A DNA stretch of 24,000 bases, taken from NCBI RefSeq assembly GCF_009380165.1, contig NZ_WHUF01000009.1, positions 131,768 through 155,767 on the forward strand, given 5' to 3'. Origin of the DNA: Rugamonas rivuli (GTDB taxonomy: Bacteria > Pseudomonadota > Gammaproteobacteria > Burkholderiales > Burkholderiaceae_D). This document shows, piece after piece, positions 16,337 through 22,597 of the stretch (position 1 is its first letter; each line of letters starts with the position of its first letter). The notes under the pieces were generated by a model, which was not told the origin of the DNA, searched no databases, and worked only from the letters and a program-made list of their open reading frames with translations. The position numbers and the translations under genes were made by a program.

Positions 16337-18157
16337 CTATGCCTCCGCCATGCGGTGGCTGATCGGCAGCGTCACGCGGAAGGTGCTGCCCTGGCCGGGC
16401 GCGGTCTGCACGTCGATGCGGCCGCAATGGTTTTGCACGATGCCGTAGGACAGCGACAGCCCCAGCCCCGTGCCCTTGCCGATGGGCTTGGTGGTGAAGA
16501 AGGGATCGAAGATGCGCGGCAGCACCTCGGCGGGGATGCCGCAGCCGGTGTCGGCGATCTCGACCCACACCTCGCCGCCCTGGCCGCCGGTGCGCACGGT
16601 GATGCGGCCGCGCTGCGGGCCGATGGACTGGGCGGCGTTTTGCAGCAGGTTCAGGAACACCTGGTTCAGCTGCGACGGCAGGCATTCGATTTCCAGGATG
16701 GGCGAAAAATCGGTATGGATGTCGGCCACCGGCGCCAGGTCGCTGCCGATCAGGTTCAGCGTCGATTGCAGGCCCAGGCGCAGGTCGCTCCATTCCCAGT
16801 CCTGCTCCGACTCCACGTGCGAAAACTGCTTCAGGTCCTGCACGATCTTGCCGACCCGGTCCATGCCGCCGCGCGATTCGGCCACCAGCGCCGGGATGTC
16901 TTCCTTCAGGTAGGCCAGGTCGACCCGGCTGCGGGTGTGCGTCAGGTGGGCGGCGGCCTCGCGCGGGGCCATGGGGAGCTCGGCTTCCTCATAGGCGCTG
17001 AGCAGTTCGAACAGATTGTCCAGGTAGTGCTCCAGCATGCCGAAATTCGACGCCAGGAAGGACAGCGGATTGTTGATCTCGTGCGCCACGCCGGCCGCCA
17101 GCTGGCCGATCGAGGCCAGTTTTTCCGACTGCACCAGCCGGCTTTGCAAGGCCTTGCGCTCGCTCATTTCCTGCTGCAGGCGGCCGTTGGCCTGCAGCAG
17201 TTCGGCGGTGCGTTCCTGGACCCGGGCTTCGAGGCGGTCGTTGGCGGTCTTCAGCTGGGCGTTGACGCGGTTGATCGTGGCGTGGCTGCGCGCCAGCCGC
17301 AGCGCCGTGTAGCCCAGCAGGCCGACCAGCAGCGTCGCCAGCAGCGACAGCCAGATCCGGTAGTTGTGCAGGTGCTGCACGGTCAGTTGCTGCTGTGCGC
17401 CCAGCAGCGCGCTGATGGCGTCGATGCGCTCGCCGGTGGGCGCCGCCGAGATGCCGGCCAGCAGGCGGCTGACGGTGGCTTCTTCGGCGATCACGGTGCG
17501 CACATGGGCGACCAGGGTGTCGACCCGCTCCCGCAGCGCGGGAGAAACGCGTGCGCTGGAGGCCGCCATGTCGGCCATCTCGATTTCGATCTCCATGACG
17601 CCGCGCTCGGACGGCGCATCGCTGTAGACCAGCGTGGCCAGCAGCACCCGGTTGGCGGCGGCTTCCACGTGCCCCATGGCCTCCAGCCGGTGGCCGCGAT
17701 GCTGGTTGACCAGCGCGCCGATGTCGTCGACCGCGGTCGGCAGGAAACCCAGCGAATTGTTCAGCACCGAGTTGTGCGATTTGAACGCTTCCATCAACGC
17801 CATTTTCTCGTGCAGGGCCTGCCGGTAGGCGGCCAGGGCGGCGGCGACCGGCGGCGATGGCGCGTCCAGCAGCAGGTGCAGTTCCTCCAGCGGTTGCAGC
17901 GGATTGACCAGCGGGTCGTAGCTGTGGTTCAGGCCGACGCGCGACTTCAGCGCGTCGAGCTCCCACTGCGCGTCGAGCTGGCGGATCTGGCGCAGCAGCG
18001 CGACGTTGGCGAAGTAATCGTTGTTGTCGTAGCCGAGGCTGCGCGCATACAGCACGCCCAGCAGGCCCGCCAGCAGCAGGCACAGCAGAGGGAGCGGCAG
18101 CATCAGCCGCCGCAGCCGCCGTCGCATCCGTATCAGGCACAGGTGGTAGGCGTTCAT
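16337..18157 (-). CDS. Membrane sensor histidine kinase with a ~230-aa periplasmic domain (possibly DAHL-type) followed by a coiled coil, HisKA and HATPase_c
   Basis: ATG 18157 overlaps the peroxidase stop (ATGA, 18154-18157). TM1 is LMLPLPLLCLLLAGLLGVLYA and TM2 is IWLSLLATLLVGLLGYTAL, with no HAMP domain. The H-box is AAGVAHEINNP, the N-box is FLNLLQNAAQSI, and the G-boxes are DTGCGI and GKGTGLGL. The ORF-track extension to 18721 is an out-of-frame shadow over the peroxidase gene. Confidence 0.85.
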   Translation of the reverse strand: MNAYHLCLIRMRRRLRRLMLPLPLLCLLLAGLLGVLYARSLGYDNNDYFANVALLRQIRQLDAQWELDALKSRVGLNHSYDPLVNPLQPLEELHLLLDAPSPPVAAALAAYRQALHEKMALMEAFKSHNSVLNNSLGFLPTAVDDIGALVNQHRGHRLEAMGHVEAAANRVLLATLVYSDAPSERGVMEIEIEMADMAASSARVSPALRERVDTLVAHVRTVIAEEATVSRLLAGISAAPTGERIDAISALLGAQQQLTVQHLHNYRIWLSLLATLLVGLLGYTALRLARSHATINRVNAQLKTANDRLEARVQERTAELLQANGRLQQEMSERKALQSRLVQSEKLASIGQLAAGVAHEINNPLSFLASNFGMLEHYLDNLFELLSAYEEAELPMAPREAAAHLTHTRSRVDLAYLKEDIPALVAESRGGMDRVGKIVQDLKQFSHVESEQDWEWSDLRLGLQSTLNLIGSDLAPVADIHTDFSPILEIECLPSQLNQVFLNLLQNAAQSIGPQRGRITVRTGGQGGEVWVEIADTGCGIPAEVLPRIFDPFFTTKPIGKGTGLGLSLSYGIVQNHCGRIDVQTAPGQGSTFRVTLPISHRMAEA

Positions 18158-19110
18158 GGCTGCTCCGTCGGCACGCTGTTCAGCGTATTGAGAAAAAGGA
18201 TGATGGCGGCCTTGTCTTGCTTGCTGCCGGTGCGGCCCAGCTGGAACTTGAACATGACGTCGATCGCCTGCTCCAGCGTGGCGGCCGAGCCGTCGTGGAA
18301 GTAGGGACCGGTACGCGCCACGTTGCGCAGGCTGGGCACCTTGAAGACATGCAGGTCGTCGGTGTTGTGCGTGACCATGTAGCGGCCCAGGTCGGCATCG
18401 TTGACGCCGCCGCGGCTGGCGAAGTAGTCGCCCATGACGCCGAATTTCTGGAACATATTGCCGCCGACATTGACGCCCTGGTGGCAGGACACGCAGCCGT
18501 ACTGCTTGAACTTGGCGTAGCCGGCTTGTTCCGCCTCGCTGATGGCGTTGCGGTTGCCGCGCAGGTACTGGTCGAAACGCGCGTTCGGCGTGATCAGCGT
18601 GCGTTCGTAGCTGGCGATGGCGTTGCGCACATTGGCCACCGTCAGGCCGTCGCGGTAGGCCGCCGCGAAGCCGCTGCGGTAGCCGGCGTCGGCGGCCAGC
18701 TTGCCCATGATCTCTTGCCACGACGAGCCCATCTCGACCGGATTGCGTATCACCATGTCGATCTGCGCCTCCAGCGTGTCGGCGCGGCCGTCCCAGAACT
18801 GGCGGAAATTCAGCGCGGCGTTGAGCACGCTGGGGGTGTTGACCGCGCCCAGCTTGCCGCGGAAGCCGGCCGAGCGCGCCCGCGCGTCGCCGCCGCCCTG
18901 TGCGACGTTGTGGCAGCTGGCGCAGGAGACGGCGTTGTTGGACGACAGCCGCGCATCGCTGAACAGGCGCTTGCCCAGCGCGGCCCTGGCCGGGTCCTGG
19001 TGCAGCGTCAGCGGTACCGGCTTAATCGGTTCGTCCAGCGGCGCGGCGGCGGCGGCGAGCGCGGCGGCGGCCAGGCACAGCGGGCCGAGGCGGCGGTAGA
19101 TGGGGGACAT
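18154..19110 (-). CDS. Periplasmic di-haem cytochrome c peroxidase (CCP/MauG family)
   Basis: AGGAG lies 6 nt upstream of ATG 19110. The signal peptide is MSPIYRRLGPLCLAAAALAAAAA. Two haem c motifs were verified at nucleotide level: CASCH (18910-18924) and CVSCH (18481-18495). The family blocks FWDGRA, FKVPSLRNV and GPYFHDGS are present. The protein is 318 aa. Confidence 0.9.
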   Translation of the reverse strand: MSPIYRRLGPLCLAAAALAAAAAPLDEPIKPVPLTLHQDPARAALGKRLFSDARLSSNNAVSCASCHNVAQGGGDARARSAGFRGKLGAVNTPSVLNAALNFRQFWDGRADTLEAQIDMVIRNPVEMGSSWQEIMGKLAADAGYRSGFAAAYRDGLTVANVRNAIASYERTLITPNARFDQYLRGNRNAISEAEQAGYAKFKQYGCVSCHQGVNVGGNMFQKFGVMGDYFASRGGVNDADLGRYMVTHNTDDLHVFKVPSLRNVARTGPYFHDGSAATLEQAIDVMFKFQLGRTGSKQDKAAIILFLNTLNSVPTEQP

Positions 19111-22187: not shown

Positions 22188-22597
22188 GGACGTAGGCCTC
22201 CGGTGGCGGACGCCGTCGCCGCGCCGCAGGCGGTGGCGATGGCGTCCAGTAACAGTTGATCGTTGACGGGTTTGTTCAGATAGGCCAGCGGCTGGTGCAG
22301 CAGTGCGCGGGCTTGTTCGGCCGGCGTCTGGTGGCCGGTGATCAGGATCACGCCGACCTCGGGCGCCTGCGCCGCCAGCATGGCCTGCACCTCCAGCCCG
22401 GACAGGCCCGGCATGTGCACGTCCAGCACCACGCAGCAGGGATGGCCGCCGTCCAGCGCGGCCAGGAACTCGGCGCCGCCGGCGTAGGCGCGGGCGCTGA
22501 TGCCGGCGGCGCGCATCAGGCGCAGCAGCGCCCGGCGTATCGCGTCGTCATCGTCTACTACGGCTATCCAGGGCGTTGAGGTATTCATGGATGCCAC
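22184..22597 (-). CDS. Stand-alone receiver (CheY-like) response regulator without an output domain
   Basis: The receiver sequence is IAVVDDDD...VVLDVHMPGLSG...ILITGH...YLNKP, with all receiver signature residues present. The start is either GTG 22597 or ATG 22588. The stop overlaps the next gene's ATG. Confidence 0.8.
   Translation of the reverse strand: MASMNTSTPWIAVVDDDDAIRRALLRLMRAAGISARAYAGGAEFLAALDGGHPCCVVLDVHMPGLSGLEVQAMLAAQAPEVGVILITGHQTPAEQARALLHQPLAYLNKPVNDQLLLDAIATACGAATASATGGLRP

Follow-up and report, generated by a model that had tools for sequence, protein, structure and literature searches.

A cytochrome c peroxidase gene coupled to a DAHL-domain kinase gene in Rugamonas rivuli: a candidate two-protein sensor of periplasmic peroxide or redox state

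Why should a secreted cytochrome c peroxidase (CCP) be encoded among signal transduction genes? The question was raised by a 24,000-nt stretch of Rugamonas rivuli DNA (contig NZ_WHUF01000009.1, positions 131,768 to 155,767; called the window below), in which five minus-strand genes, A to E, encode a receiver (REC), a REC-GGDEF-EAL-REC protein of cyclic di-GMP (c-di-GMP) signalling, a soluble histidine kinase, the CCP and a transmembrane (TM) kinase with a DAHL domain. The letters A to H are used throughout for minus-strand open reading frames (ORFs), and coordinates are collected in Table 1. An earlier note on this DNA had delimited the five ORFs and their junctions, assigned their domains and described the genes as tightly coupled, and the ORFs, Pfam searches and reading of the junctions from the sequence bore out each of these descriptions. 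It had also assigned the peroxidase a place within the signalling machinery itself. The analysis below leads to the view that peroxidase D very probably belongs to the sensing apparatus, because its gene is without exception coupled to a DAHL-domain gene while the outputs vary; favoured with moderate confidence is the reading that D and E act as a physical co-sensor which responds to peroxide or to the redox state of the periplasm.

Conservation was assessed by sampling from either gene. For the CCP-first scan, an alignment of close homologues of D was used as the query against one genome per GTDB species, which gave 595 confirmed relatives, and the best 80 (54-82% identity) were kept. These loci belonged to Duganella, Massilia, Polaromonas, Comamonas, Rhizobacter, Rhodocyclaceae, many Pseudomonas (fluorescens, mandelii and koreensis groups), an alphaproteobacterial metagenome-assembled genome (MAG) and a Rokubacteria MAG. 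A gene for a DAHL-domain membrane protein lay directly downstream of the CCP gene in all 80 (77 by tblastn; loci L067, L075 and L076 by Pfam). For the DAHL-first scan, the motif FKSHN[AS]VLxNS, within the DAHL hallmark seen in the alignment (FKSHNAVLRNSLxFLP), was back-translated to a degenerate DNA pattern and run on a metagenome collection. Among the 119 loci returned, five had less than 420 nt of upstream sequence and were too short to judge, and three were chance matches; the latter, which have no CCP gene, were considered as exceptions and rejected, as the motif sits in ORFs of 22-38 aa. At every one of the remaining 111 loci a CCP gene was immediately upstream of the DAHL gene. The stop and start codons of the two genes overlapped as NTGA in 67 of the 80 genome loci and 94 of the 111 metagenome loci.

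The DAHL profile was also run against 1.84 billion cluster representatives, where it matched 2263 proteins at E<=1e-10 with architectures that included histidine kinases, hybrid kinases, PAS-GGDEF-EAL-REC and GGDEF proteins and an 1846-aa multi-PAS hybrid. Five DAHL proteins were chosen by profile score, without reference to CCP, from the best 150 of the 2263, and CCP_MauG was encoded directly upstream in all five, the two genes overlapping by 11 nt in L207 and by 4 nt in the others; one of the five, from a metagenome, was a DAHL-MCPsignal chemoreceptor. The same arrangement was seen in three further loci that were looked up. A tblastn search of plasmids with the DAHL domain gave no match, and word-indexed searches for DAHL homologues with a single sequence and with a profile gave 8 and 2 matches from swamped candidate lists and were of no use as a census.

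In the 80 genome loci the output of the DAHL protein was a kinase in most, and the variants comprised a PAS-kinase with REC domains (L005), a hybrid kinase with REC and Hpt domains (L069), a GAF-GAF-kinase-REC protein (L071), a PAS-kinase (L075), GGDEF alone (L072) and GGDEF-EAL (L060). Only five loci, four of Duganella and one of Massilia, had the full five-gene block. Since CCP and DAHL were constant in both sampling directions, the conserved unit is the pair and not the five-gene block; conservation of the block outside close relatives, by which the earlier note proposed to judge its case, was not found, and it is the CCP-DAHL core that is widespread. Since the pair is constant while the output module changes, the CCP fits a partner of the periplasmic domain rather than a target of any one output. 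The claim of a signalling role for the peroxidase thereby gained strong comparative support from gene neighbourhoods at roughly 200 loci. The reason originally given for it, that the CCP lies between two kinases, gave way to another: the relevant feature is the coupling of the CCP to the DAHL domain encoded by the next gene, whatever the output.

The neighbourhoods also bear on a rival explanation, by which D is an ordinary periplasmic peroxidase, serving detoxification or H2O2 respiration, that is co-expressed with a sensor of something else or of peroxide itself, so that adjacency would mean co-regulation. It is in line with this that H2O2 has been proposed as an electron acceptor for the CCPs of Campylobacter jejuni, and that a DAHL domain has been reported, at second hand, to bind small ligands directly. 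However, the 4-nt overlap persists upstream of outputs (MCP, GGDEF, EAL) that cannot control CCP transcription, and a regulated target would not stay fused by overlap to such outputs; the linkage is also complete in both sampling directions.

The sequence of D provides evidence on both sides of the same explanation. D matched the Pfam family CCP_MauG (PF03150) at 195.3 bits (cutoff 25.6), and CCPs in the PDB matched it at 1e-72 to 1e-56 over the whole mature length (1iqc, 2e-72; 3o5c, 3e-69; 6qkn, 3e-68), with 42-44% identity to characterised enzymes. Residue 26 of D aligns with residue 2 of mature 1iqc, so that residues 1 to about 24 correspond to a signal peptide. There are two CxxCH haem motifs, C63ASCH and C206VSCH; both of these, Q104, W106 and M286 are invariant in 81 linked CCPs, E126 is kept in 79 of the 81, and M286 aligns with the conserved Met of 1iqc and 3o5c. 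Conservation of the catalytic residues and of both haem sites, like the identity to characterised enzymes, is what an ordinary peroxidase would show. A difference was found at one position, which is His in 1iqc, 3o5c and 6qkn and F83 in D. This His (His71 in P. aeruginosa numbering) is the distal ligand of the peroxidatic haem in the resting enzyme and has to leave the haem on reductive activation. His was present there in 0 of 170 linked CCPs (F in 104, V in 25, I in 21, L in 10 and others in 10), and in a neighbour-joining tree (no support values) the 170 linked CCPs formed one clade with four PDB CCPs outside it. The residues at this site suggest that the haem pocket of D would be permanently open to small ligands, which would suit a sensor and also a constitutively active enzyme. 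The separation of the linked CCPs as a clade with a changed haem pocket argues against an ordinary peroxidase, as does DocA, the C. jejuni CCP discussed below, which gives no H2O2 protection, and with the linkage evidence this explanation was judged distinctly unlikely. The best solved match to D was PDB 9qdt_A, a 417-aa "Probable cytochrome c peroxidase" with an N-terminal extension of ~120 aa; it is likewise without the distal His (Val is there instead), yet falls outside the DAHL-linked clade.

Two CCP-family di-haem enzymes, MauG (acting on pre-methylamine dehydrogenase) and MbnH (acting on MbnP), are encoded beside the protein that they modify. By this precedent D could be a maturation enzyme that renders the DAHL domain able to sense through oxidative modification of one of its residues, and MauG and MbnH were in fact its best NCBIfam matches; a near-invariant Tyr80 and an invariant His218 in the DAHL domain would be available for modification. 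The scores were far below the NCBIfam cutoffs, however (TIGR03791 MauG, 163.5 with a cutoff of 443.85; TIGR04039 MbnH, 176.9 with a cutoff of 362.85), and membership of D in either family was rejected. D aligns with the Met-ligated canonical peroxidases (M286), at 1e-72 as against 1e-25 for MauG, and the DAHL domain has no invariant Trp, so that a role in maturation appears very unlikely.

The DAHL domain of E (PF19443; 167.3 bits, cutoff 38) covers residues 44-267 and is flanked by hydrophobic segments at about 18-38 and 285-305. An AlphaFold2 model of residues 36-288 gave an all-helical bimodular bundle (pLDDT 84, pTM 0.70), for which the best PDB folds were stacked-helical periplasmic sensors, namely the McpS HBM domain (TM-score 0.55-0.59), PilJ and TorS. 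The sensor domain of TorS (3i9y and 3i9w, including a chain of the TorS-TorT complex) matched at TM-scores of 0.53-0.58 with E-values of 0.05-0.1 and 11-12% identity; because the E-values are weak, this is a fold resemblance only, with homology not established. TorS signals through its periplasmic partner TorT and thus provides a precedent for sensing via a partner protein. Very few DAHL residues were invariant across 32 diverse CCP-linked members, namely D81, F125, K126, N134, S135 and H218; in E the His218 codon is at window positions 17504-17506 and the sequence FKSHNSVLNNS is encoded at 17753-17785. These residues are candidates for a CCP contact or a ligand site.

Another explanation has D acting enzymatically on the signal and not touching E, either by consuming peroxide near the receptor, which would set a threshold or allow adaptation, or by oxidising a periplasmic small molecule into the ligand of the DAHL domain. 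The retained catalytic residues, the second-hand reports of small-molecule binding by DAHL domains and the stoichiometric co-production expected of translational coupling would all suit such an arrangement. A diffusible product or substrate needs no strict one-to-one coupling, however, no candidate substrate is encoded nearby, and the TorS-like fold has its precedent in protein partners; local enzymatic action was on these grounds considered unlikely.

If D and E are instead a physical co-sensor, they would form a two-protein periplasmic sensor in which D, exported by the Sec pathway and devoid of the distal His but with the catalytic Gln/Trp/Glu and the His/Met haem kept, docks onto the all-helical DAHL domain of E, a contact that we infer. 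The haem state of D, as peroxide turnover is set against electron supply from periplasmic cytochromes, would determine the autokinase activity of E. Phosphorylated E would then most likely pass its phosphoryl group to the C-terminal KPW-type receiver of B, the EAL phosphodiesterase would be switched and the c-di-GMP level would change, with C, A and the N-terminal receiver of B as a possible second branch or kinase cascade; the equivalent second kinase in other lineages bears its own receiver. The course of such a chain, from peroxide through a phosphorelay to c-di-GMP hydrolysis, would be that already reasoned in the earlier note. Even chances are given to the general proposition that DAHL domains serve to dock a dedicated di-haem peroxidase that has no distal His, the two together being a universal plug-in periplasmic peroxide or redox sensor for kinases, c-di-GMP enzymes and chemoreceptors. 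A bolder form of this proposition, by which His218, invariant in DAHL, would fill the empty distal position of the haem in trans until peroxide displaces it, has at best a slim chance of being correct.

The wiring downstream of E was approached through the receivers and kinase cores. In B the GGDEF motif reads GNDEF, so that the GG(D/E)EF active-site motif is not intact, and GNDEF is kept in six Oxalobacteraceae orthologues (GNNEF in Massilia). The EAL profile scored 248.9 bits, and the signature residues are present (EALLRW, EVTE, DDFGTGYSS, KID, EGVET and QGYYF); B is probably a phosphorylation-controlled c-di-GMP phosphodiesterase. Its C-terminal REC, of the KPW type, is closest to REC1 of a Comamonas regulator (38% identity, 6e-31), a REC-REC protein that is encoded after a minimal CCP/DAHL-kinase pair. 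A minimal system of CCP, DAHL-kinase and REC-REC protein is thus present in Comamonas, and probably in Rhizobacter, and it is from the closeness of the two receivers that E would be expected to phosphorylate the C-terminal REC of B.

A related but differently built cluster was found in Pseudomonas, where REC-PAS-GGDEF-EAL, REC-GGDEF-EAL, CCP, DAHL-kinase and REC-kinase genes follow one another with 4-nt overlaps and a divergent REC-HD_5 (HD-GYP-like) gene lies upstream. An example is Pseudomonas neuropathica (L066, 5744-14138 and 4190-5551), and most of the 52 Pseudomonas loci are alike. The two GGDEF-EAL proteins and the REC-kinase of this cluster carry three paralogous N-terminal receivers with an insert (AFIDMRMPPGWDG), of 56-62% mutual identity. 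The H-box of the Pseudomonas DAHL-kinase is LHNVGNVLNS, unlike that of E. Kinase C is a paralogue of the core of E (44% identity), and the core of the Pseudomonas REC-kinase shares 50% identity with C and 55% with the core of E. L207 and L204 likewise encode a second kinase that carries a receiver; two kinases linked by receivers may be a recurring design, of which A and C would be the split form. The best NCBIfam match of A was the FixJ receiver, below cutoff; its phospho-acceptor residues are present in the translation (DD, D59, T87 and K109), and its closest receiver match is that of the upstream regulator F (38% identity), a similarity that hints at cross-talk with the upstream FixJ-type system. 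In the metagenome locus L207 (1-1415) a gene for an MCPsignal-CZB chemoreceptor is immediately upstream of the pair of CCP and DAHL-hybrid-kinase genes; the CZB domain binds zinc and has been implicated in the sensing of HOCl.

Several points weigh against the co-sensor reading. The whole of its support is gene order and sequence, and the phosphotransfer routes given above are guesses from paralogy. D keeps every catalytic residue and may simply be an active enzyme. The sampling was biased, in that one set of loci was collected by way of the CCP, the motif of the other was taken from CCP-linked DAHL domains, and the five profile-chosen proteins came from the best 150 of 2263, with remote DAHL members outside the sample. 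Direct ligand binding as reported, again at second hand, for the C. jejuni DAHL receptor Tlp10 means that a DAHL domain can in principle sense without a partner. Finally, the likeness to the C. jejuni gene pair docA-docB, described below, is drawn from published descriptions of the two genes.

The junctions of the operon were read from the sequence. Genes A and B overlap by ATGA (22184-22187), the B/C junction reads TGA-C-ATG (20015-20009), and C and D are separated by a 19-nt spacer, gccgccacAGGAGcatccc, in which AGGAG lies 7 nt before the ATG of D at 19110. Taken mechanically, the ORFs of D and E begin further upstream, at 19281 and 18721; 19110 and 18157 were adopted as their starts on the evidence of the ribosome-binding site, the signal peptide or first TM segment, and the alignment starts of homologues. 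Gene A could start at ATG 22588 instead of GTG 22597. The minus strand showed no terminator-like hairpin within 13800-24000, which makes a single A-E transcript plausible. The A-E block is not a named system, since none of the five proteins passed an NCBIfam equivalog cutoff.

Table 1. Features of the operon and of the adjacent signalling genes, in window coordinates
Feature	Position	Strand	Description	Pfam evidence
Gene A	22184-22597	-	stand-alone receiver (REC), FixJ-like, 137 aa	Response_reg 2.1e-20
Gene B	20013-22187	-	REC-GGDEF(GNDEF)-EAL-REC, 724 aa	EAL 5.6e-74, GGDEF 3e-40, Response_reg x2
Gene C	19130-20011	-	soluble histidine kinase without sensor domain, 293 aa	HisKA and HATPase_c only
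Gene D	18154-19110	-	secreted di-haem CCP, 318 aa	CCP_MauG 1.1e-57
Gene E	16337-18157	-	TM-DAHL-TM-HisKA-HATPase sensor kinase, 606 aa	DAHL (PF19443) 5.5e-49, HisKA, HATPase_c
D/E junction	18154-18157	-	ATGA stop/start overlap, CCP to DAHL kinase; defines the conserved two-gene module	
Gene F	22650-23345	-	REC-GerE (FixJ/LuxR) response regulator	Response_reg 1.3e-27, GerE 2.7e-19
Gene G	23258-24000	-	3' part of the kinase partner of F; continues past the window end	HisKA, HATPase_c
Gene H	15277-16302	-	PAS-GGDEF diguanylate cyclase	GGDEF 1.2e-48, PAS_4
Intergenic motif GGCCCAAGGTCCAATAGC	22621-22638	-	upstream of A, between F and A; kept in Duganella L001-L004 and Massilia L032	

Signalling genes on the same strand adjoin the operon on both sides, so that A-E, though a reasonable transcription unit, belongs to a larger signalling island. 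Four Duganella species and Massilia aquatica share the order G-F-A-B-C-D-E-H. Gene F, also on the minus strand, lies 52 nt upstream of A; it probably starts near 23261, where it would overlap the end of G. It is syntenic in Duganella, Massilia and L081 (a 6.7-Mb ENA contig from a close relative); in L081 it encodes 204 aa and overlaps its kinase gene by 4 nt, and the full-length relative of G there is a dCache_1-PAS_3-HisKA-HATPase_c protein of 728 aa, by which G-F is an ordinary two-component pair. The statement in the earlier note that the operon has no DNA-binding output stands within the five genes, but a REC-GerE regulator and its kinase, syntenic in all close relatives, begin only 52 nt upstream. 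The motif GGCCCAAGGTCCAATAGC may serve A-E as a promoter or operator; alternatively, the mRNA may be leaderless. A variable TAtnnT element was noted ~20 nt after GGCCCAAGGTCCAATAGC, just before the start codon of A. Gene H, 34 nt downstream of E, is followed by an SGL-family gene and is syntenic in all close relatives. The true start of H is probably ATG 16265 (MQEN...), as in L004, where the ORF list gives GTG 16302. A perfect TATAAT at 16304-16309 lies upstream of H inside GCGGCTGCGCTTATAATC, which is kept in L001-L004, and H probably has its own promoter at this element. The sequence ATCGTGGCA, present at the starts of both A and H, was considered as a shared regulatory site and rejected, being neither above chance nor conserved.

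In close relatives a stand-alone Hpt gene (188-189 aa) is located just upstream of the island, on the far side of G (L081, 1573-2142; L202, 3727-4293), and this Hpt protein could take part in a His-Asp-His-Asp relay with the island kinases and receivers. L202 (GCA_000381565.1, KB906726.1) has a decayed island at 5342-6969, in which the gene for a truncated CCP (220 aa) overlaps that for a short DAHL-HATPase protein (322 aa), and the same flanking genes enclose no G, F, A, B or C. CCP or DAHL-kinase genes were frameshifted or interrupted at L081 10001-11808, L203 6001-7828, L015 ~11068-12767 and L007 ~10019-10879; these interruptions, some of them in long-read assemblies, may be assembly errors or pseudogenes. 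Beyond H, window positions 8356-15287 are syntenic with L081 and hold the SGL-family gene (14337-15287), an S9 peptidase gene (12300-14330, plus strand), a short-chain dehydrogenase gene (11341-12120) and a GH2 beta-galactosidase-like gene (8356-11337), an ordinary metabolic context that fits a Duganella-like Oxalobacteraceae genome.

Bacterial peroxide sensing is known in the cytoplasm (OxyR, PerR), and to our knowledge no dedicated periplasmic peroxide receptor is established for two-component, c-di-GMP or chemotaxis systems. If the co-sensor reading is true, the DAHL family, with its 2263 cluster representatives at E<=1e-10, would gain a signal, and a numerous group of genes that carry the annotation "cytochrome c peroxidase" would have to be regarded as sensors. 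In soil and rhizosphere Pseudomonas and in Oxalobacteraceae, exposure to oxidants would feed directly into decisions on biofilm and motility. For C. jejuni, it would explain how DocA serves colonisation without H2O2 protection, which is a testable answer to a long-standing puzzle, and the reported small-molecule ligands of Tlp10 would not be the whole story.

The literature was searched for CCP-sensor, CCP-c-di-GMP and DAHL-kinase systems. The statement in the earlier note that no characterised system has this composition proved nearly right, as docA-docB of C. jejuni is a partly studied instance of the same gene pair. The DAHL domain was defined and named on the ligand-binding domain of Tlp10 (DocB, Cj0019c). 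According to a 2011 review, docA (Cj0020c, a putative CCP) directly precedes docB, neither of the two CCPs of C. jejuni adds to H2O2 resistance, and chick colonisation by docA mutants is poor. A paper in PNAS (July 2026) described an overlap and translational coupling of cj0020c with cj0019c and offered, in a single sentence, the speculation that Tlp10 is informed of peroxide by DocA; nothing else of relevance was found in the search. Within that literature, the CCP-DAHL linkage, the His-less subfamily and the tie to kinases and c-di-GMP enzymes seem not to have been described. In docA-docB, as here (ATGA at 18154-18157), a CCP gene is directly upstream of and coupled to a gene for a DAHL transmembrane receptor, and the CCP-DAHL-MCPsignal layout was recovered in a metagenome locus; DocA is a periplasmic haem protein without a protective role against H2O2. 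The systems differ in that the output there is a chemoreceptor and here a kinase feeding c-di-GMP enzymes, and in that Tlp10 has been studied as a direct binder of small molecules (Elgamoudi 2021, as related in a citing paper).

Canonical CCPs (P. aeruginosa CcpR, N. europaea 1iqc and Shewanella CcpA 3o5c) share with D the fold family, the two CxxCH motifs, the His/Met high-potential haem and the Gln/Trp/Glu residues. Unlike D they have the distal His, which is replaced by a hydrophobic residue in nearly all linked CCPs, and they fall outside the clade of the latter, whose genes are always coupled to a DAHL receptor gene.

In the H-NOX/HnoK and NosP/NahK systems a separate haemoprotein is encoded beside a kinase, and a network of multiple kinases and receivers leads to a REC-EAL or REC-HD-GYP output that governs c-di-GMP and biofilm; the divergent REC-HD_5 gene of the Pseudomonas cluster adds to this likeness. 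H-NOX and NosP, however, are cytoplasmic b-haem gas sensors acting on soluble kinases, whereas the present pair consists of a periplasmic c-type di-haem peroxidase and a transmembrane DAHL receptor, and no H-NOX or NosP/FIST domain was found by Pfam in the nine genes scanned. With TorT/TorS and LuxP/LuxQ the pair would share the use of a periplasmic protein as the ligand-sensing subunit of a transmembrane kinase. Its partner is a redox enzyme and not a periplasmic binding protein as TorT is, and no TorT-like gene was found among the same nine genes. Set beside these systems, D-E would be a partner-dependent, haem-based sensor, of which docA-docB is the one partly studied instance.

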